A stretch of 64,000 bases of DNA from Patescibacteria group bacterium (GTDB lineage: Bacteria > Patescibacteriota > Minisyncoccia > Phycocordibacterales > Phycocordibacteraceae). The stretch spans positions 8,769 to 72,768 of the forward strand of contig JBBTSV010000009.1 of the NCBI GenBank assembly GCA_038064595.1, written 5' to 3'. The position numbers and the translations under genes were made by a program. The notes under the pieces were generated by a model. That model made no database searches. It was not told the origin of the DNA and worked only from the letters and a program-made list of their open reading frames with translations. Shown here piece after piece: positions 2,813-64,000 of this stretch; position 1 is the stretch's first letter; every line of letters starts with the position of its first letter.

Positions 2813-5800
2813 TCAAAAGAGTTTTTTGAATGCAGTCCAGAGTCCATACGCACCATTATAGACTGCCGCGCCCACCTTCTTGAGCCATGACTGTTGAGAG
2901 ACTGCGTCAAGAGCTGATGCTGTCTGCGGGACATTCACTGGTGCCTTTTTCACTGTCGTAGTAGCCACTGTTACTGTCTTCTTGGTTTGAGCTACCTTCT
3001 TAGTAGTCGTGCTCGTAGCGGGGGGATGAGTGATAACGGGGCTCAGAGCCACTGTCGCTGTCGTCGTAGCGATAACAGGAATGGAGATGGCGCCAGCGCC
3101 TCCGCCAGAGCTTGCCTCTGGTACTGGAGGGGCTTGAGCTGGAGGCTCGTAGCTCACGGTCTCACCGGCCTTAAAGCCAATCAAGAGATCCTCTCTCCCA
3201 TCTCCGTCCTCATCCACCCGGAGCGTAGAGGCTGTGTCGAGGCCGCCGGAGATGTTGAGTCTCACGCTCGTTTTGGGAGTCACGGGGACGTCTGCGATGC
3301 TGCTTGAGGTGGCCACCACCCCACCCACGCTCTCCTCAATGTCGAGTGTGAAGGTCCCAGTATCTTGACCATACAACGTGAGTTCATATCGGCCACTCTC
3401 GGGTACGATGAGGTATTTAAGCTCGCCGAGCTCTCCGTAGGTCGAGCTTGGGATGTCTTCTGTGACCGACCCGTCGACAGCAAGGCCGGTGATATTGCCG
3501 AGTGAGTCTGTGGCCTGGAGAGTGAGTGGTGAGTGGAGGAAAAAGATGAGTTTCTTTTCGGAGGTGGATTCTGGTTGAGTAACAGTGATGAAGTTTGGCA
3601 AAGGATCAGAACCCTCCCTAATACTGTTTTGAATAAAATCCTTTAGCAAAGGTATCTCAAAAAGATTTTTGTGATCAAATTTTGTTTTAGTGCCGGGAAT
3701 GTTATTGATCTTTGCCAAATCAACCCAATACCTCTTCACGGCTGTGCTGGAGGCCATCATGATCGCGCTCGGGACGGTGACGGTACCATCGCCGTCTTCG
3801 ACAAAGATGGGCTTGTAGAGACGCTTTGACTTCCCGGGAGGAGAGTAGAAATTGATCCCTGCGAGTGTGTCGATGCCCCACCCGGCGATCTGATCGACTT
3901 TTATGCCGTCTGGCGGGGTCCAGAAGTCGAGTGCCGCGTGCTGCCTATTTGCGTAGTCAATCAGATCGGCATTAAGAATCTCTGCAGACTTGACGTCTTT
4001 TTCTTCCGGCTTCTCTCGCCCACCCTCCTTGGCGAGAAGAAAGTCGGCGAGCGCGACACGGTTTGCTATCGTTGCGCCATATGCTGCAAACTCTTTGGTG
4101 TACCCATTTCCTGAAAAGCGTATGACCGGGTGCGCTGCATCTCCCATAGTGCTCTCAAGGTAGTACTCCGACGGGAGGAGGTGGTATGCCATAGGCGCAT
4201 TCTGTGCGAGCGCCCGAGCGGTCGCTTCGTGCACAATCGAGAACCCGAGAAACGAGATGCCTTGGTTGTATCCGTACAAAAGCGCCCCGATGCTCTCCGG
4301 GGCGCCGCTCTGCGGCGCCCCGACCATAATCACCTTGTCCACCAGCGTGGGAGCTGCACTCCCGAGCTTTTTCAAGAGCGCCTTGGCAAGAAGACCGCCA
4401 TTGCTGTGCGCGACAATTGTCACCTTTCCGCTCTTCGATGAGGCGGCGAGCCGACGTAACTCCTGCAGTACATACGGAGTCGATGTGGCTCGCAAGTCTC
4501 CGGAGTAGTAGATGCGGCCATCTTTATTGTTCCCATAGGCGAGAATGTCGTCGAGAGAAAGTCGCCAATCATAGGCGATCGGCTCCCAGTCGTTGATAGT
4601 CCCATCGGCTTTGAGCGCATCCATCTGTGCGACGAGCGAGTCGTAGATCTTCCCGCCGAAGGGGATCTCTTCTATCACATCGCGCTCTTTTGCGTAAATA
4701 TCAAAACGCGCGCTCGTGCCGTCGGCGTTGAGATAGAGGTCTTTCATATCCGTATCACCCGCAGGTTCCCAAAGCTTCTCCGTCCCGCCATCATAATCAG
4801 GACGATAGAGCCGGCTCCCCTCTATACCGGGCAGAAAGAGAACATTTGAGAAGCCTGAGGTCGCCACGCCCCACGACGTAAGCCAAGGTGAGAACTGGAC
4901 CGTACTTCCCGTGACATACTCGACTGCGTTACCCGTGCCGCCAAGATTATCCGGGTCGTTATAAGGGCCACTCACATCGCCCCAGAAATTGTCGGTGGCA
5001 TCGATCGTTGCGGCGACATGTACCACAAGCCCTCCTGAGGTGTTGTCCGCGATCTTGTTCTGCGAGAGCGTATACAAAGAATTTGTTCCGTACGTGCTTA
5101 TACCCGTGTCATTCTGCGTAATTTCAGTATTGGTAAGCGCCAGTTCATTCGAAAATTCAGGCCTCGACCCGTAATCGGCGACCCCCGCTCCGTACGGAAA
5201 CTCAGAAATAATCGAGTCTCGCATTTCTATTTTCCCACCGTTAAAGGTAACGAGCGCGTCCCCCGTGCCCCCGATCATGCGCACCCCAGTAAGCGCGAGG
5301 CGTGCATCAGCAACTTCTATCGCGTCAAAAGCATCGGTATTGGTTATAGTCGCATCCTGTACGGTGAGTGACGACTGATCGTAGACCGCTAGGGCTGGTC
5401 CGTCTGAGATGGTATCGAACCGCGCATCGCGCATTTCAATAGAGCTCTGGACAAAGGTCATGACCGCTCCAGAGCTGTCAGAAATAGAACGTATCGTTGA
5501 GCTTGCCACACGAGCGCTACTGCCCACGTATACCGCAATAACTTGAGAGGAAACACCCTCAGCAAGAAAGTCAGAGATTGATGCGTGGCTGTTCTGGTAG
5601 ATCTGGATGCCGAAGTCCACGTTGTGCAGCGTGACCTGTGCAAGTGTCGCAGTACTCCCATAGCTAAGCTCGACCGCGGCATCTAAGATACGCTCAAAAC
5701 GGGCACGCTCAAGAAAAAGAGTTCCTCCTGATACAAGGATCCCACGATCGCTATCCTTCACAACAGAGTCAGAAAAGGTGAGTGGGTTCTTGCTGTCGTC

Positions 5801-32363: not shown

Positions 32364-33209
32364 CTACTCCTCGCCGATTAAACCAAGTCGGTAGAGCTCA
32401 AAAGAGTGGTCGCCCTCGAACATGTCGGAGGGGTTGGGGAGATAGGTACGTGCGCGCATGATCTCAGCCGTTGCTTCTTCAAGGAGACGATGGAAGACGT
32501 TGAAGTCTTCAGCGTGCTCCTTAAAGTCAATCGCGTAGCGCCGCATCTGTGGGCTGCTGTCCGCATTTTTGGTCTTCTTGCACTCGTAGACGATAAATTG
32601 ACGCACCGGCTTATTGAAGAGCTCCCGCACCGTGTAGTAGTTAAATATCGCCTGAATAATAAAGAGTGTCTTGACCGCCCCGCCCTTACTAAACGCGGCG
32701 ACGAACTTATGATCGACGATATCTACCGCGCCCTCCTCCAGCTTCGACGCGACCACGAGATCAGAGACCGCCTTCAAGGGGAGCGAGAGTCCGGTGACCT
32801 CGACCACCCCCTTCACCTCGACCCCGAGCACCGTATGGCGTGGTGGACGCGCGAGGTAATAACCGATCGCACGTAGATACTCTATCTCCATTAATTTCCG
32901 TTTCTCCTTCTGTGCACGCATCGACTTAGCCTTCCCGAAATTGATTTCAAAGTCGGCAATGGCGCGTAGATACTCGAGCCCGCGCGCTATCGCGAGCTCC
33001 TTGGGCACGCCACTATAAAAATGCTCGAGCGCGTAGTGCCCTGCGCTACCCACCGCCGAGGCGGGGGTGCGCGGGGTGTCGTAGATCTCCTCGACATAGC
33101 GCGCGTACCACGCAAGTGGGTTGCGTAAAAACGCCATCAAGCTCGAGTGGCTCCAGTGCTTAATCGGCGCCTTCTTCCGCTTCCCCACCTGTTTTCTCTT
33201 TTTCTGCAT
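32364..33209 (-). CDS. PD-(D/E)XK nuclease (RecB/Cas4-like PDDEXK_1 type, no Cys cluster)
   Basis: N-terminal WSHSSLMAFLRNPLAWY, like the SxSxL..F..CP..Y motif. Catalytic region GAVDIVDHKF (D-x-D-x-K). Confidence 0.6.
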   Translation of the reverse strand: MQKKRKQVGKRKKAPIKHWSHSSLMAFLRNPLAWYARYVEEIYDTPRTPASAVGSAGHYALEHFYSGVPKELAIARGLEYLRAIADFEINFGKAKSMRAQKEKRKLMEIEYLRAIGYYLARPPRHTVLGVEVKGVVEVTGLSLPLKAVSDLVVASKLEEGAVDIVDHKFVAAFSKGGAVKTLFIIQAIFNYYTVRELFNKPVRQFIVYECKKTKNADSSPQMRRYAIDFKEHAEDFNVFHRLLEEATAEIMRARTYLPNPSDMFEGDHSFELYRLGLIGEE

Positions 33210-33228
33210 ATTTTTAGTTTAGTATAGA

Positions 33229-33273
33229 CTATCCAAGCTTTGTCCCTATAGAGACATATCTTGGATACCTCTC
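33229..33273. promoter_or_regulatory. 45-nt operator/promoter-like element copy 1 (TATCCAAG-N22-CTTGGATA), about 20 bp upstream of the nuclease gene
   Basis: ctatccaagctttgtccctatagagacatatcttggatacctc, near-identical to the copy at 33878. Confidence 0.55.
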
Positions 33274-33857
33274 TATTCTGGAGGGAGGTCAAAGTGTTCC
33301 CGGAGATGCGCATCTCGCTCCAACCGCTCTACGATCATGTACAACACATCTGCTCCTACACGAAAGCTCGCTTTAACGAGCGCAATGAGATCCTCACAGT
33401 CATATGGGTAGATCCATACACTGTCCTGTAGTCGAACAAACCCGTACTCCTGCATAAAACGACGGAGACTTACGCGTATACCCTTACGTCGCTCCGGAAT
33501 ATCAAAGATGACCACCCGCCACCGCCTATCCCAGCGTCTTTTCTTATTGCTTACCTTCTTTTCAAGTTCCATCTTGACCACAAGCTCCCCTTTTTCAGTT
33601 ATGCGCGCCACACGCCTCCCCCTCACTTCACTAAATTCTATAAGCCCGCGGGCAGCAAGACGTCCGAGCGCCGACTTTGTTTGATAATTAAACCGTGCAC
33701 CTTTCTTGTATCCGGGAAAGTACTCAATCAGACGAAGGGCGTTCGGTATCGCTACCGCCGTCATCACCACACCCCCGACAACCACCGCGGCAAGGAGTGC
33801 TTGTTGAAATGTACCCAGTCGCCGTTCGCGTCGTGCAACTCGCTCAAGATTCCCCAT
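33273..33857 (-). CDS. PaaX-like regulator: N-terminal transmembrane helix, winged HTH, and a Cas2/VapD-like fold domain
   Basis: wHTH SALGRLAARGLIEFSEVRGRRVARITEKGEL. Next comes WRVVIFDIPERRKGIRVSLRRFMQEYGFVRLQDSVWIYP. This mirrors the PaaX GKWLLLLSEG...LIWQGFGALAPSLMA segment and the Cas2 beta1-alpha1 pattern, with Asp on beta1. Confidence 0.5.
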   Translation of the reverse strand: MGNLERVARRERRLGTFQQALLAAVVVGGVVMTAVAIPNALRLIEYFPGYKKGARFNYQTKSALGRLAARGLIEFSEVRGRRVARITEKGELVVKMELEKKVSNKKRRWDRRWRVVIFDIPERRKGIRVSLRRFMQEYGFVRLQDSVWIYPYDCEDLIALVKASFRVGADVLYMIVERLERDAHLREHFDLPPE

Positions 33858-33877
33858 TCATTTCAGGCTAGCACATC

Positions 33878-33922
33878 ACTATCCAAGCTTTGTACCTATA
33901 GAGACATAGTGTGGATACCTCC
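33878..33922. promoter_or_regulatory. 45-nt operator/promoter-like element copy 2, about 20 bp upstream of the PaaX-like gene
   Basis: cactatccaagctttgtacctatagagacatagtgtggatacctcc. Confidence 0.55.
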
Positions 33923-34141
33923 TTTGTAAAAGACGGTCCGCGTGGTGACACGCGAACCGAAGCATTTGGATCTGGGCACTGATGACTCCTATTCACCCGG
34001 TCCATCTTCCGGTTCAACAGGAGCCTTGCACACTGCGTACAGCATTCCCTTATGGGAATGCTTTCCTCGATCCTCATTGGCTGTTTCCGCTTTTTCGATC
34101 ACTCTATCGTTGGATTTTTTGCAGTTCACCAAAGCAGAGAT

Positions 34142-35461
34142 CTAGTAACTCTTCAGATGGCGGGCTTTGTTGTGGGTGCGGATTTTCTCAAGCGCTTTTG
34201 CCTCGATCTGGCGGATGCGCTCTCGCGTGACGCCGAACTCTCTACCCACCTCTTCAAGCGTGTGGTAAATACCGTCCATAAGTCCATGGCGCATCTCAAG
34301 GATCCTGCGCTCCTTAGGCGAGAGATCATTCAAGATCTGACGCACCTGCTCAGAGAGAATGCGCTCTGACGACTCTTGTACTGGTGAGGGGATTTTGTCG
34401 TCGGGAATAAAGTCGCCCAGTGTGGACTTCTCATCATCATCGGAGCCAACCGGATTCTCCAAAGAGAGTGTATCTTGGTTAATCTTCTCGATTTGATAAA
34501 TCTTCTCCGGCTCAACGCCCATCTCAACTGCGATTTCTTCAGCCTGCGGATCACGCCCAAGAACCTGTGCGAGACGGCGCGAGACCTGCTTATACTTGGC
34601 GATCGTCTCCACCATATGCACGGGGATACGGATCGTGCGGCTTTGATCAGCGAGCGCGCGCGTGATCGCCTGGCGGATCCACCACGTCGCGTAGGTGGAG
34701 AACTTGTACCCCTTCTTCCAGTCAAACTTGTCCACCGCACGGAAGAGTCCCAAATTCCCTTCTTGAATAAGATCAAGGAGAGTGAGGTCTGGGCTACGGC
34801 CGACATACTTCTTGGCAATCGAGACCACGAGACGCAGGTTGCTGCGCGCGAGGATGTTGCGTGCTTCGGCGTCACTCTTCTCGATACGCTTGGCGAGCTC
34901 ACGCTCCTCAGCGGCAGTGAGGAGCGGGTACTGCCCAATCTCACGGAGATAGATCTGGATAGAATCGTAGCCGGTGGAGTGCCGGTCTTTAATGTTGCGT
35001 GTTGCGAGGTATTCGTCAGCGGCATCTTCAAGCATGCCGCCCTCGAGCACGTCTACACCGGCGATAGCAAAACGTTCGTACAGCGACTCGAGGAAGTTGA
35101 CATCCTCTTCAACATGCGGAAATGATTTTAGAATCTCGTTATAGGTGACATAGCCGCGCTCCTTTCCCTTCTCAATAAGTGCTTCAGCCGAGAGTGCTTT
35201 CTGTGCGCCGGCTTTTGCCTTTGCACCACGCACAGCAGCGCGCACCACCTGCTTCTTGGAGACCTTGTGCGTGGTCACTTTTTTGGCCTTCTTCTTGGCA
35301 GGCACGCGCTTCTTAACCGATTTTTTGATCGGCTTTCTGGTACGTTTTGTTGCTTTGGGATGAGACGTGGCCCTCTTCTTTTTGGTAGCGGATTTTTTGG
35401 TCATAAATAAAATAGGTCGGTCAACCGCCGAGCACAGAAAGACGTGCAGAGAGTGTGGCAC
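34142..35461 (-). CDS. rpoD: RNA polymerase sigma factor (sigma-70 family, primary)
   Basis: Region 1.2/2 [16 protein letters not shown], region 2.4 [14 protein letters not shown], region 4; Lys-rich N-terminus. Confidence 0.9.
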
Positions 35462-60000: not shown

Positions 60001-63000
60001 TTAGGCTCCGAGGACGGCGAGGGCGCGGGCGAGGGCGAGCTTCGCACCGGTCACGCCCGTTGAATAACTTGAGTCAATCGCATTACTCAAAGAAGAGATA
60101 AGCTTCTCCAGGGTCGGAGTGTCGAGGCGAGCTGTGAGCCGCGCAATGTCGGGCGCACAGGGCGTGCCGTCAACACGCGCGCGGTACGCGTCATCGAGGA
60201 GACATGCGGTGGCCGAGAGAAGCTCTTCTGCAGCTCCTCCTCCCCGTACTTCTTGACGCAGCCCCGCGAAGACCGCCGTGCGATCACCCTCAATAAGCGC
60301 AGCGACAAAGCCGCGCACTGATGCCGGGGCCGCACTCTCTGGTACCAACGCTACTGCTGGGGTCTCCGCAACAACCGGCTCTACGTTCTCGTAGATCGGC
60401 TCTACATTTTCATATATTGGCTCAACATTCTGGTGTTCCTTCGCCGCCGCCGCGCTCGCATGACGACGAGAGAGACCTTTCACAATATCGTCGATCGAAA
60501 GCGATCCTCCTTCAGCAAACGACTTAAAGCCGTCATAGGTCGAGTAGGTACGAGGTGCGTCTGACGCGGGTGGAGGTGTGTGTTGAGGTTGAGGCGTTGG
60601 AGCCGGCGAAGCAGAGGCGGCAAGAGCCACGGTAGGAGCTGACTCAGATGAATTAAGAACGGTGTGAATCCGAGCACCAAACATGCGGAATTGGCGATTC
60701 GTAAAGGGTACTGCCCGGAAGAGAATAAGATAGGCAACCGCAAGCGCCCACATGATAAGCGCTAGCCAATAGAGCGTCGTTCCGAGGGGTCCGAGAGAGA
60801 GACCAGTCTGTGGAATCTGCGCGAGGTAGAGGTACGCAAGCGACTGTGCTTGTGGAAATACTGCAAGACTCACTGTGGGTGGCGGCGCACTGCCACCGCC
60901 ACCGCCACTAGGCGGCGGTTGCCCACAGTTTCCGCTACAACCACCGCCGCCACCCGACGAGTCAACAATGAGTGCTGTCGAACAGGTGACGGTTTGCCCG
61001 TTCGTCCCTGTGAACGTGCCCACATAGGTGTACGTCTGTGCGTTGGTCGGCGAAACTCTTGTCGAACTCGGGATAGTGGTGGTCGCGCCGATACCGTTAT
61101 CTATCGTTACACTTTGGACATTAGTGCCGCCCCACGAAAGGGTCGCGCTGCCACCGGTCGTATAGCGCGTTGGCGAGAGGCTCATCGTACAGGTCGGCGC
61201 GGGCGGAGTGGTCGTCACCGTGACAGTTGCCGAGCATACTGCTGATGCACCCGAGGCGCCGGTTACCGTACCGGTATACGTTGTCGTTGTAGTCGGAGTG
61301 GTCGATGTCGCACCTGACACTATCGAGGTCACTGCACCGATCCCTTGGTTAATCGAGAAGGCAGTAGCGTTGCTGGTATTCCACGAAAGAGTCGAGGTTG
61401 CACCCTGCTGAATTGCGGCCGGGGTCGCCGTGAGGGTACAGGTCGGTGCCGGAGGAGTAACTGAGACCGTCACCGTATCCGCACACGTCACAGTACCGCC
61501 CGGACCCGTTGCGGTGCCGCTATAGATGGTGGTCGCGGTTGGTGTGACCGAGCGAGAACCGCCCGCAAGAGGAGTCACTGATCCCACACCACGATCGATA
61601 GTGAATGAGGTGGTGTTGGTGGTGGTCCACGCGAGACTGGAGGCAGTGCCTTCGACAATCGTCTTGGGAGACGCGGTGAGGGTGCAGGTGGGGGCGGGGT
61701 GGTCAGTAACGGCCACGGTGTCAGCACAGGTATTGGTCAACCCATTTGCTCCGGTCACGGTGCCGGTGTACGTGGTCGTCACGCTCGGTGAGACCGAGCG
61801 GGAACCGCCAACAACGGGGGTCACAGAACCAATCCCCTGGCTGAGGGAGATGGATGTCGCATTGGTCGTCGTCCATGCAAGTGAAGAAGCTGCGCCGTTG
61901 AGTATGGATGCGGGAGACGCCGTGAGGGTACAGCTCGGGACCGGCACTGCCGTCACCGTCACGGTGGCGGTACATGGTGTGGAACCTCCCGGACCCGTTG
62001 CGGTGCCGCTATAGATGGTCGTCGTTGAGGGTGAGACCGAACGAGAGCCGGCAGCGACTGGCGTCACCGAACCAACGGCGTGATCAATGACAAATGAGGT
62101 GGCGTTGGTGGTAGTCCACTCAAGTGAAGATGCCGAACCGGTTTGAATGATGGAGGGAGATGCGGTGAGGGTGCAGGTGGGTGCGGGAGGGGGTGTCACC
62201 GTGATCGTTCTGCTGCAGGTATCTGAACCGCCTGCGCCCGTCACGGTGCCGGTGTACGTGGTCGTCACGCTCGGTGAGACCGAGCGAGAACCACCAATAA
62301 CGGGTGTCACGGAGCCAATCCCCTGATTGAGGGAGATGGATGTCGCATTTGCCGTGTCCCAGGAGAGGGTGGTTGAGGATCCGGCTTCAATGGAGAGCGC
62401 TGATGCAGTGAGTACGCACGTGGGAGGAGGAGGTGGAGGAAGTGGCGTCACCGTCACCGTATCCGCACACGTCACAGTACCGCCCGGACCCGTTGCGGTG
62501 CCGCTATAGATGGTGGTCGCGGTTGGTGTGACCGAGCGAGAACCGCCCGCAAGAGGAGTCACTGATCCCACACCACGATCGATAGTGAATGAGGTGGTGT
62601 TGGTGGTGGTCCACGCGAGACTGGAGGCAGTGCCTTCGACAATCGTCTTGGGAGACGCGGTGAGGGTGCAGGTGGGGGCGGGGTGGTCAGTAACGGCCAC
62701 GGTGTCAGCACAGGTATTGGTCAACCCATTTGCTCCGGTCACGGTGCCGGTGTACGTGGTCGTCACGCTCGGTGAGACCGAGCGGGAACCGCCAACAACG
62801 GGGGTCACAGAACCAATCCCCTGGCTGAGGGAGATGGATGTCGCATTGGTCGTCGTCCATGCAAGTGAAGAAGCTGCGCCGTTGAGTATGGATGCGGGAG
62901 ACGCCGTGAGGGTACAGCTCGGGACCGGCACTGCCGTCACCGTCACGGTGGCGGTACATGGTGTGGAACCTCCCGGACCCGTTGCGGTGCCGCTATAGAT

Positions 63001-64000
63001 GGTCGTCGTTGAGGGTGAGACCGAACGAGAGCCGGCAGCGACTGGCGTCACCGAACCAACGGCGTGATCAATGACAAATGAGGTGGCGTTGGTGGTAGTC
63101 CACTCAAGTGAAGATGCCGAACCGGTTTGAATGATGGAGGGAGATGCGGTGAGGGTGCAGGTGGGTGCGGGAGGGGGTGTCACCGTGATCGTTCTGCTGC
63201 AGGTATCTGAACCGCCTGCGCCCGTCACGGTGCCGGTGTACGTGGTCGTCACGCTCGGTGAGACCGAGCGAGAACCACCAATAACGGGTGTCACGGAGCC
63301 AATCCCCTGATTGAGGGAGATGGATGTCGCATTTGCCGTGTCCCAGGAGAGGGTGGTTGAGGATCCGGCTTCAATGGAGAGCGCTGAGGCGTTCAGCACA
63401 CAGGTGGGTGCGGGAGCGGGCGGAGGCGGGGCCGTCACGGTGATCGTTGCGACGCAAGAATTTGAACCGAAAGCGCCGACCGCGGTACCCGTGTAGGTGG
63501 TCGTAACGGTGGGCGAAACCGTTTGTGAACCGGATCCCGTGAGAAAGAGACCGACTATTTTATCGATAAAGAAGAGGGTGGAGTTGGTCGTCGTCCACGA
63601 GAGCACAGCGCTCGATCCCTCCTCTATGGTCGTAGGAGATGCGGTAAACGTACAGGACGGATCCGGAGAAGGAAACGCGCACCCGCCAAGGTAGGTAACG
63701 TCCCAGGTGCAGCTGTTGCGCGTCCATGACGCCATACCAACGGTAGCGCCAGCAGGGATACCGTACTGACCAGCCCAGTCGGCGCAGGCGACTGGATCTT
63801 GTGGAATCTCGTTTGGTACGCACGCCGGAGGTGGCTCGGTGCAGCCGCCCGTGTACGTTACGTCCCAGGTGCAGCTATTGCGCGTCCAAGAAGCCATGCC
63901 GACCGTGGCGTTCGCTGGGATACCGTACTGACCAGCCCAGTCGGAACACGCAACTGGCTCTTGTGTGATTTCAGTTGGTACGCACGCCGGAGGTGGCTCG
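60001..64000 (-). CDS. Giant cell-surface protein with tandem Ig-like repeats, 5'-partial (over 1330 aa in window)
   Basis: At least 12 repeats of about 95 aa (TCTLTASP..I..G.SS.L.WTTTNATS..I..G.GSVTP..GGSRSVSP..TTTY.GT.TG.GG...C..T.TVT). Three N-terminal MASWTRNSCTWDVTY modules. Gly-rich linker, one transmembrane helix (LGPLGTTLYWLALIMWALAVAYLILF), and a roughly 340-aa cytoplasmic tail containing an NVEPIYE x3 repeat. The ORF is open at the window end. Confidence 0.85.
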   Translation of the reverse strand, partial: EPPPACVPTEITQEPVACSDWAGQYGIPANATVGMASWTRNSCTWDVTYTGGCTEPPPACVPNEIPQDPVACADWAGQYGIPAGATVGMASWTRNSCTWDVTYLGGCAFPSPDPSCTFTASPTTIEEGSSAVLSWTTTNSTLFFIDKIVGLFLTGSGSQTVSPTVTTTYTGTAVGAFGSNSCVATITVTAPPPPAPAPTCVLNASALSIEAGSSTTLSWDTANATSISLNQGIGSVTPVIGGSRSVSPSVTTTYTGTVTGAGGSDTCSRTITVTPPPAPTCTLTASPSIIQTGSASSLEWTTTNATSFVIDHAVGSVTPVAAGSRSVSPSTTTIYSGTATGPGGSTPCTATVTVTAVPVPSCTLTASPASILNGAASSLAWTTTNATSISLSQGIGSVTPVVGGSRSVSPSVTTTYTGTVTGANGLTNTCADTVAVTDHPAPTCTLTASPKTIVEGTASSLAWTTTNTTSFTIDRGVGSVTPLAGGSRSVTPTATTIYSGTATGPGGTVTCADTVTVTPLPPPPPPTCVLTASALSIEAGSSTTLSWDTANATSISLNQGIGSVTPVIGGSRSVSPSVTTTYTGTVTGAGGSDTCSRTITVTPPPAPTCTLTASPSIIQTGSASSLEWTTTNATSFVIDHAVGSVTPVAAGSRSVSPSTTTIYSGTATGPGGSTPCTATVTVTAVPVPSCTLTASPASILNGAASSLAWTTTNATSISLSQGIGSVTPVVGGSRSVSPSVTTTYTGTVTGANGLTNTCADTVAVTDHPAPTCTLTASPKTIVEGTASSLAWTTTNTTSFTIDRGVGSVTPLAGGSRSVTPTATTIYSGTATGPGGTVTCADTVTVSVTPPAPTCTLTATPAAIQQGATSTLSWNTSNATAFSINQGIGAVTSIVSGATSTTPTTTTTYTGTVTGASGASAVCSATVTVTTTPPAPTCTMSLSPTRYTTGGSATLSWGGTNVQSVTIDNGIGATTTIPSSTRVSPTNAQTYTYVGTFTGTNGQTVTCSTALIVDSSGGGGGCSGNCGQPPPSGGGGGSAPPPTVSLAVFPQAQSLAYLYLAQIPQTGLSLGPLGTTLYWLALIMWALAVAYLILFRAVPFTNRQFRMFGARIHTVLNSSESAPTVALAASASPAPTPQPQHTPPPASDAPRTYSTYDGFKSFAEGGSLSIDDIVKGLSRRHASAAAAKEHQNVEPIYENVEPIYENVEPVVAETPAVALVPESAAPASVRGFVAALIEGDRTAVFAGLRQEVRGGGAAEELLSATACLLDDAYRARVDGTPCAPDIARLTARLDTPTLEKLISSLSNAIDSSYSTGVTGAKLALARALAVLGA
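61468..63435. repeat. Perfect tandem duplication (2 x 984 bp, identical over about 930 bp) inside the giant surface-protein gene
   Basis: 61468-62400 is identical to 62452-63384; the encoded 162-aa and 84-aa alternative-frame ORFs are also identical. Confidence 0.9.

Follow-up and report, generated by a model that had tools for sequence, protein, structure and literature searches.

A 64,000-nucleotide (nt) stretch of DNA from a bacterium of the Patescibacteria group (contig JBBTSV010000009.1; hereafter the window) carries a gene for a PaaX-like regulator directly upstream of a gene for a PD-(D/E)XK nuclease, and each of the two genes is preceded by a copy of the same palindromic element. The regulator and its element are one case of a large family of small PaaX-type proteins whose genes are bracketed by their own palindromes, and do not form a module dedicated to the nuclease. 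At this locus the protein probably acts as an autorepressor that also gates the nuclease promoter, a reading to which we give a probability of roughly 0.7. The features of the locus, in window coordinates and with lengths in nt, base pairs (bp) or amino acid residues (aa), are as follows.

33273-33857, minus strand: regulator gene, 194 aa (open reading frame, ORF)
32364-33209, minus strand: PD-(D/E)XK nuclease gene, 281 aa (ORF; Pfam PDDEXK_1)
33878-33921, minus strand: upstream element copy (U), 44 nt, found by repeat comparison; ends 20 nt before the regulator ATG
33880-33917, minus strand: core palindrome of the U copy, on the gene strand TATCCACA...TTGGATA, in which TATCCACA is DnaA-box-like
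33865-33870, minus strand: -10-like hexamer TAGCCT of the putative regulator promoter, from sequence; 7 nt before the regulator ATG
33228-33271, minus strand: downstream element copy (D), 44 nt; begins 1 nt past the regulator stop codon and ends 18 nt before the nuclease start
33221-33226, minus strand: -10-like hexamer TATACT of the putative nuclease promoter, from sequence; 11 nt before the nuclease ATG
33934-33959, minus strand: intrinsic-terminator-like hairpin with T-run closing rpoD (terminator scan); 12 nt upstream of the U copy
34142-35461, minus strand: rpoD (sigma-70), the upstream neighbor of the regulator (ORF, conserved synteny)

The palindromic element and the two proteins

The term operator is used here for a candidate protein-binding palindrome, named from its sequence, position and geometry. 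The U and D copies were identical at 40/44 positions (91%), and a search with their 31-nt core pattern, allowing up to 3 mismatches, recovered the U and D sites only in the 64 kb (0 expected, from 100 shuffles). The D copy contains an exact inverted repeat, TATCCAAG-N22-CTTGGATA (33230-33267), and the U copy shows two mismatches to the inverted repeat, in the outer arm. Read on the gene strand, the D copy is followed by 1-3 nt, TATACT, 11 nt and the nuclease ATG, and the U copy by 7 nt (9 nt from the core palindrome), TAGCCT, 7 nt and the regulator ATG. Since a terminator-like hairpin closes rpoD a few nucleotides before the U copy, the regulator must own a promoter inside or after that copy. 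The initial annotation had described a repeated inverted-repeat element ahead of both genes, about 20 bp upstream of their start codons, and both points were borne out by the two 91%-identical copies and by their distances of 18 nt (nuclease) and 20 nt (regulator).

At both promoters the element carries 6-bp inverted half-sites, TATCCA-N26-TGGATA. The PaaX operator of E. coli is TGATTC-N27-GAATCA, and PaaX keeps Px, the promoter of its own gene, repressed by obstructing RNA polymerase (PMC9493321). In the arrangement of its half-sites the element matches the PaaX operator; the match is one of geometry, and binding of the regulator is predicted.

The regulator was found to consist of a basic N-terminal tail, a hydrophobic segment (residues 20-38), a winged helix (about residues 40-105) and a Cas2-like PaaX_M domain (residues 107-177). 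It matched Pfam PaaX_M (PF20803, 'PaaX protein central Cas2-like domain') with an E-value (E) of 3.9e-18 and 65.8 bits against a cut-off of 24, and reached 19.5 bits with Pfam Cas2 (PF09827), under the cut-off of 23.8. With the NCBIfam cas2 model (TIGR01573) it scored 26.5 bits against a cut-off of 24.5, in a match that spans 37 residues only, and PADLOC Cas2 models gave matches with E up to 5e-7. The PaaX equivalog level was not reached (TIGR02277, 31.8 bits against a cut-off of 264.55); the NCBIfam PaaX alignment placed regulator residues 61-158 onto model positions 38-134. No match was obtained to the Pfam PaaX winged helix (PF07848) at E<=1 or to the helical domain PaaX_C (PF08223), and the regulator ends 17 residues past PaaX_M.

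The structure was predicted by AlphaFold from 84 sequences of two paralog clades, an earlier input of 24 close homologs having given an unusable model with a predicted local distance difference test score (pLDDT) of 49.5. Residues 110-190 (pLDDT >90) were predicted to adopt the beta-alpha-beta-beta-alpha-beta fold of Cas2, and residues 54-105 (pLDDT about 70) a helix with a beta-hairpin wing; residues 1-53 stayed below a pLDDT of 50. When the model was searched with Foldseek, E. coli PaaX ranked first (8A39; E 5e-4, 142 aligned columns) and Rv0674 (3KFW) second, followed by about thirty Cas2 chains, and a PDB sequence search with the regulator profile gave marginal matches only (3KFW, E 0.16). 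The Cas2-like domain, with the motifs FDIPE in beta1 and LQDSVW, shows the highest conservation within the protein, and the Asp of beta1 (D119) is invariant in alignments of 76 and of 84 homologs; the winged helix is more variable. The regulator is a truncated PaaX-type protein, with a winged helix and a Cas2-like domain and without the C-terminal domain of PaaX. The PaaX-like winged-helix regulator with a Cas2-like domain that had been read from the sequence was thus upheld by the PaaX_M match, the predicted fold and the Foldseek ranking, and the Pfam and NCBIfam profiles were strong for PaaX_M and weak for Cas2. In NCBI and JGI annotation the family carries the name 'CRISPR-associated endonuclease Cas2', because of the marginal, partial TIGR01573 match just above the cut-off; this label is likely a systematic mis-annotation.

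Within residues 20-38, 2 charged residues were found in about 1,400 positions of 76 homologs, and the mean Kyte-Doolittle hydropathy, computed by hand, was about 2.4. The segment is therefore transmembrane-like by hydropathy, and a membrane anchor of the regulator appears plausible. In the same homologs five to eight Arg/Lys are clustered in front of it, the N-terminal flank being more basic than the C-terminal one, and the segment looks like a signal anchor. By hand alignment with the PaaX sequence, the segment presumably occupies the place of PaaX helix 1, conserved Gly included; it may therefore belong to the winged helix or form an oligomerization surface.

The nuclease matched PDDEXK_1 (PF12705; RecB/AddB/Cas4-like) with E 9.3e-17. 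Its residues D150, D166, H167, K168, Q186 and Y191, invariant in 20 homologs, are those of the catalytic D...(D/E)xK...QxxxY pattern, and together with the profile match they confirmed the PD-(D/E)XK assignment. The N-terminal tail is basic. A Cas4-type four-Cys Fe-S module was not found in the nuclease, the 20-homolog alignment containing a single invariant Cys (C210); PADLOC returned no match to any known defense system, and a PDB sequence search returned no match.

Regulator and nuclease loci among relatives

The regulator family was found to comprise at least 4,805 proteins, in 332 clusters at 50% identity (E<1e-30). Regulator and nuclease each have thousands of relatives in Patescibacteria, mostly in Paceibacteria, and the closest 120 relatives of either protein are at least 68-70% identical to it. 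Of the 150 cluster representatives with the best scores, nearly all had the same architecture of about 190 aa. When species-representative genomes were scanned, 480 regulator relatives were obtained, and several paralogs per genome were seen; for example, six metagenome-assembled genomes among the best 80 loci hold three each. Viral contigs gave one distant partial match only, for which reason a phage origin of the family was dropped.

Flank statistics were taken from 79 regulator loci, drawn from thousands of family members (individual loci are given as L numbers), and neighboring genes in relatives were accepted only if confirmed by Pfam, greedy ORF calls being noisy in GC-rich DNA. The regulator was bracketed by two matching 38-42-bp palindromes in about 72/79 loci, in most of them with one copy 0-30 nt before the ATG and the other 0-30 nt past the stop. 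Local alignment of the two flanks of the same gene gave a median score of 24, against 8 for flanks of different loci and 8 (maximum 12) for shuffled flanks. The arms of the palindromes differ between paralogs; the center had the form C-N4-G in 93/101 copies (CGGTCG/CGACCG in 48, CTATAG in 34), and many of the downstream copies are perfect palindromes with 19-bp arms. The second element is a family-wide feature of the 3' flank of the regulator gene.

Third operator copies were found in 2/67 loci. At L040 the copies (about 900-940 and 1887-1925) bracket the regulator together with the following short-chain dehydrogenase gene, and L004 has an extra copy (3662-3697) about 240 nt upstream of the usual upstream copy. 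Helical phasing of the copy pairs was weak (Rayleigh p about 0.03-0.08, the loci being non-independent) and was not counted in favor of looping.

A TANNNT hexamer ending 6-7 nt before the ATG was present in 66/79 loci, and a Shine-Dalgarno-like motif in 7/81. The position of the hexamer and the rarity of Shine-Dalgarno motifs indicate that the regulator mRNAs are probably leaderless and that the operator would lie over the -35/spacer region. In distant paralogs the -10 hexamer lies inside the palindrome, which ends at the ATG. The first five residues of the regulator (window 33843-33857) form an MGxLE sequence that is near-invariant across paralogs (M1, G2, E5), the rest of the N-terminal tail being variable; this constancy may reflect limits set by leaderless initiation or by overlap of operator and ATG.

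A DnaA-box-like TATC[CA]ACA, with 8/9 bases of the DnaA box, occurs in the U copy of the window (33910-33917, minus strand) and is rare in the window as a whole (4 sites). In the family it was found in the promoter-distal arm of the upstream copies at 40/78 loci, at a constant 49-62 nt upstream of the start codon, and in downstream copies at 5/78 loci, and this placement holds across paralogs with otherwise different arms. The bias to upstream copies may be due to a second factor, perhaps DnaA, or to an asymmetric half-site. Separately, a recurrent TTTATACACC(A/T) motif was seen 25-30 nt upstream of U operators (L010, L012, L018, L021, L022, L105, L148) and likewise of nuclease promoters that have no operator (TCGTCAAGTATCTGGTATACT; L019, L022, L084, L086). 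This placement gives the impression that the operator entered a promoter that was already there.

The genes next to the regulator vary among paralogs. Close paralogs precede RNase HII or ComEC, and a gyrA-linked paralog precedes an S-adenosylmethionine methyltransferase and a solute-binding protein. Other paralogs neighbor glycosyltransferases, a ComEA-like gene, PurD or DnaE, and further ones face convergent ExoX, RecJ or metallo-beta-lactamase-fold genes.

The nuclease was examined at 76 loci with enough upstream DNA, taken from metagenomes and look-ups. The regulator was located upstream of it in 34/76 loci (45%), in 30 of these adjacent, and TATAAT or TATACT and then the nuclease start come immediately after the D copy in most of these 30 loci. 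Six loci that have no regulator keep a solo operator about 70-110 nt before the nuclease ATG (L103, L105, L118/L123, L148, L150). In type, the solo operators match those of paralogs encoded elsewhere, beside RNase HII or other genes, a match that implies control in trans. The solo site of L118 is one base off the downstream copy of L011, whose regulator adjoins RNase HII; both loci come from the same aquifer well, and the look-up did not place them in one assembly. Because solo operators precede the nuclease even where the regulator is absent, the nuclease appears to be a genuine target.

Two further arrangements were seen at these loci. A diverged second copy of the last 11-13 rpoD codons (ending in ARHLKSY and the stop codon) follows the regulator cassette, just before the nuclease promoter, in L019 (3154-3182 and 4676-4704) and L022 (3208-3243 and 4663-4698); such copies also lie between regulator and nuclease in L001 (2334-2348), L028 and L128/L130/L131. 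The copy looks like the scar of a cassette insertion into the 3' end of rpoD. At 'empty' sites (L087 3960-4003, L091, L092, L101, L151, L158), rpoD and the nuclease gene are contiguous or overlapping (gap -4 to +26 nt), with neither regulator nor operator, and are probably co-transcribed.

In the window, the gene order is rpoC-dnaG-rpoD-regulator-nuclease-dsbA-like, and this synteny, the regulator being variably present, is conserved among relatives. A convergent dsbA-like gene, an RNase-H-fold exonuclease gene and hisS lie 3' of the pair, and the neighbors within 10 kb on either side include rpoB, rpoC, dnaG, rpoD, the nuclease, the dsbA-like gene and hisS. No cas or paa genes were found within 10 kb on either side of the regulator, and no CRISPR-like array in the 64-kb window. 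The spacer between rpoD and the U copy (33922-34141, 220 nt) holds the terminator hairpin; its other roughly 180 nt have been assigned no feature and did not match Rfam. The GC-rich end of the window contains long tandem repeats (61495-63333 and 63691-64000, with periods of 243/489 nt and 162 nt), probably within a gene for a repeat-domain protein.

Proposed mechanism and alternative explanations

According to the mechanism that we propose, a dimer of the regulator would bind the 38-42-bp operator. Its two winged helices would read the variable outer half-sites (TATCC/GGATA), about three helical turns apart, and the conserved Cas2-like dimer would lie over the conserved center (CTATAG in the window). 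This arrangement is suggested by the variable arms and near-fixed center of the operator, set beside the variable winged helix and conserved Cas2-like domain of the protein. The U copy would cover the -35/spacer region of the leaderless regulator promoter and would bring about autorepression by keeping RNA polymerase away, in the manner of PaaX at Px. The position of the D copy, right after the regulator stop and abutting the nuclease -10, suggests that the same protein gates the nuclease, and U and D, about 650 bp apart, may cooperate via DNA looping or a roadblock. The domains, the geometry of the element, its placement relative to -10-like hexamers, the co-variation of operator pairs across the family and the solo operators at nuclease promoters are observations; we infer the binding of the regulator to the element, repression as the direction of the effect, and the contact between the Cas2-like domain and the center.

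Several observations weigh against this mechanism. In 41 of the 76 nuclease loci rpoD lies directly upstream and there is no regulator, and most of these loci have no operator. The downstream copy is kept where the following gene, confirmed by Pfam, is convergent (L033, L036, L046, L072); it is thus more than an operator for that gene and must serve the regulator gene itself, for which it may act by looping with the upstream site, as a roadblock or in some other way. The solo sites lie about 30 nt upstream of the -10 hexamer, a position that also fits activation, and common ancestry is a confounder wherever protein subfamilies and operators co-vary. A consensus promoter scan found no canonical sigma-70 -35/-10 pair, so that the promoter assignment rests on the family-wide -10 register. 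The charge balance around the hydrophobic segment, moreover, predicts an N-in/C-out topology with the winged helix outside the cell, which is at odds with a role as regulator.

The regulator-less loci decide the question of a two-gene module, as which the pair had been presented in the initial annotation. With 41/76 loci lacking the regulator, the conserved linkage of the nuclease is to rpoD, and the regulator is a facultative insert between the two; there is no obligate module, and regulator paralogs adjoin many other genes. The gene pair and the element were nevertheless found to be conserved in relatives, with co-varying operator pairs. The annotated autoregulator that also controls the nuclease was retained, given that both promoters bear the palindrome and that solo sites occur, but the notion of a dedicated nuclease-control circuit was abandoned.

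Among the alternatives, the one that survives best, although we regard it as unlikely, is a selfish or mobile cassette. The unit of about 700 bp would have palindromic ends that are seen by its own winged-helix-targeted Cas2-like nuclease or recombination factor; it would insert beside conserved genes (rpoD, gyrA), and control of the nuclease would be incidental. The tight bracketing, with copies 0-30 nt from ATG and stop in most loci, would fit such a cassette, as would the occurrence of several paralogs per genome and a Cas2-like domain that retains the beta1 Asp and varies much less than the winged helix. Presence and absence at one site (34 rpoD-nuclease loci that carry the cassette, 41 that lack it) and the scar-like rpoD-tail copy in L019, L022 and L028/L128, together with the downstream copies at convergent genes, keep the possibility of mobility alive. 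However, copies in the same genome share only 45-60% identity, with an operator specific to each; near-identical ones, which an active element would be expected to leave, were not seen, and the synteny of the rpoD-linked and gyrA-linked groups is stable. No HUH motif occurs among the invariant residues, and no tyrosine-recombinase or DDE features were found. Precise placement of the -10 hexamers relative to the palindromes, solo operators that match paralogs encoded elsewhere and not remnants of the local type, and the near-absence of the family from viral contigs also speak against a mobile unit.

A bolder form of the cassette explanation, in which we place less belief still, takes the winged-helix-guided Cas2-like protein, with its metal-binding Asp and membrane anchor, to bind and perhaps cut or capture the bracketing DNA, so that the cassette recognizes itself. 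If true, the cassette would promote its own maintenance, excision, uptake or insertion beside highly conserved genes (rpoD, gyrA); it would then represent a type of selfish element not known before, as well as a Cas2 DNA 'ruler' relative that stands free. An IS200/IS605 or REP/RAYT unit was rejected as a separate candidate: the invariant residues include no HUH motif, and the palindrome is present just twice in the 64 kb, with a third copy in 2/67 family loci.

The palindromes could also act as hairpins in RNA or single-stranded DNA, that is, as a terminator or stabilizer at the 3' end of the regulator mRNA and as an insulator upstream. We consider this very unlikely. The D copy, right after the stop codon, folds with -19.5 kcal/mol (z -4.2), and many downstream copies are perfect palindromes with 19-bp arms, both as expected of a hairpin; the U copy of the window, in contrast, folds like shuffled sequences (-9.1 kcal/mol, z +0.5). 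Palindrome mismatches of the G.T and A.C types numbered 52 vs 42 for the downstream and 38 vs 45 for the upstream copies, so that there is no sense-strand bias and no excess of G.U-compatible over A.C mismatches. A T-run after the D-copy hairpin is absent, the terminator scan does not call the D copy, and an Rfam search gave a sub-threshold chance match only. Moreover, the U copy lies upstream of the inferred leaderless start, and hairpins would leave unexplained why the copies of one locus share their sequence while loci differ. Since U and D share sequence and not foldability, a duplex protein-binding site seems favored over an RNA hairpin.

A little less likely still, in our estimate, is a surface DNA receptor or nuclease, in which the hydrophobic segment would be a signal anchor (N-in/C-out) and the winged helix and Cas2-like domain would act on extracellular DNA, for example in uptake. 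Patescibacteria are thought to depend on DNA uptake. The charge distribution favors this topology, and some paralogs lie beside ComEC, a ComEA-like gene, RecJ or ExoX. Against it stand the operators on the protein's own promoter in exact -10 register, their geometry, which is that of the cytoplasmic repressor PaaX, and their number of two sites per 64 kb, unlike uptake sequences. A genuine CRISPR-associated Cas2, as annotated by NCBI and JGI and as the TIGR01573 score (26.5 vs 24.5 bits over 37 residues) and the PADLOC matches (E up to 5e-7) would have it, is effectively refuted by the Pfam scores (Cas2 19.5 vs 23.8, PaaX_M 65.8), a protein twice the size of Cas2 with an added winged helix and hydrophobic segment, the absence of an array from the window and of cas genes within 10 kb on either side, and the several paralogs per genome in housekeeping contexts.

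Known systems and significance

PaaX of E. coli and Pseudomonas, a repressor that responds to phenylacetyl-CoA, resembles the regulator in the order of its winged helix and Cas2-like middle domain and is its best structural match (8A39). The PaaX operator, like the element, consists of two 6-bp inverted half-sites, about 27 bp apart, and PaaX autorepression is promoter-occluding (PMC9493321). The C-terminal helical domain of PaaX binds phenylacetyl-CoA (PMC9493321). PaaX has about 305-316 aa, whereas the regulator has 194 aa and no such domain. Unlike PaaX, the regulator has no paa genes nearby, carries a basic tail and an uncharged hydrophobic segment of 18-19 residues at helix 1, and occurs as several paralogs per genome, each with its own bracketing operator pair. 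Rv0674 of M. tuberculosis (3KFW), a PaaX-like protein of unknown function, was the second structural match and the best PDB sequence match, covering the linker and the Cas2-like domain; it differs in its 247 aa, in a C-terminal extension, in a beta1 Asp that is not conserved in the alignment and in the absence of a hydrophobic N-terminal segment.

With Cas2 and VapD the regulator shares the ferredoxin-like beta-alpha-beta-beta-alpha-beta fold, the FDIPE motif of beta1 with its invariant Asp, and LQDSVW. It differs from them in the fused winged helix, in having no cas1, CRISPR array or toxin-antitoxin partner, and in its predicted target, a sequence-specific palindrome. The Cas2 dimer carries the central duplex of the prespacer, and Cas2 on the prespacer center offers an analogy for the role proposed at the operator center.

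The controller (C) proteins of restriction-modification systems, such as C.PvuII, are small autoregulating helix-turn-helix proteins encoded upstream of a nuclease gene, which bind palindromic boxes at their own promoter and set nuclease expression. They are like the regulator in being small (here predicted) autoregulators encoded just upstream of a nuclease, but have another fold and operator size, are co-transcribed with the endonuclease and are paired with a methyltransferase; here, no methyltransferase is present, and the nuclease, a conserved core gene linked to rpoD, has a putative promoter of its own. In ToxR and CadC, which are membrane-bound one-component regulators with targets nearby, the same chain bears a winged-helix DNA-binding domain and one hydrophobic span, as would the regulator if its segment spans the membrane. 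In these proteins a cytoplasmic N-terminal DNA-binding domain is followed by the span and a periplasmic sensor, whereas the span of the regulator is N-terminal, an external domain is absent and the predicted topology is at odds with DNA binding.

In the literature that was searched, no paper combined 'PaaX' and 'Cas2', and the 15 top-ranked papers for PaaX with Patescibacteria or Candidate Phyla Radiation (CPR) terms did not mention PaaX. The regulator family is probably a variant of the PaaX-type repressors. A large uncharacterized family of regulators of ultra-small groundwater bacteria sits in databases under a Cas2 label, and the likely mis-annotation (family members P0001, P0011, P0021 and P0250, for example) would inflate the counts of 'orphan Cas2' in CPR/Patescibacteria genomes.

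Patescibacteria have tiny genomes and few recognizable regulators, and gene control in them is almost unknown. The genes under the control proposed here are the rpoD-linked nuclease and, for the paralogs, RNase HII, ComEC and others. As each paralog carries its own pair of 40-bp sites, the family presents a candidate protein-operator code whose specificity would be readable from sequence, and a Cas2-type dimer acting as a fixed-length spacer between two DNA readers would link PaaX repressors and Cas2.

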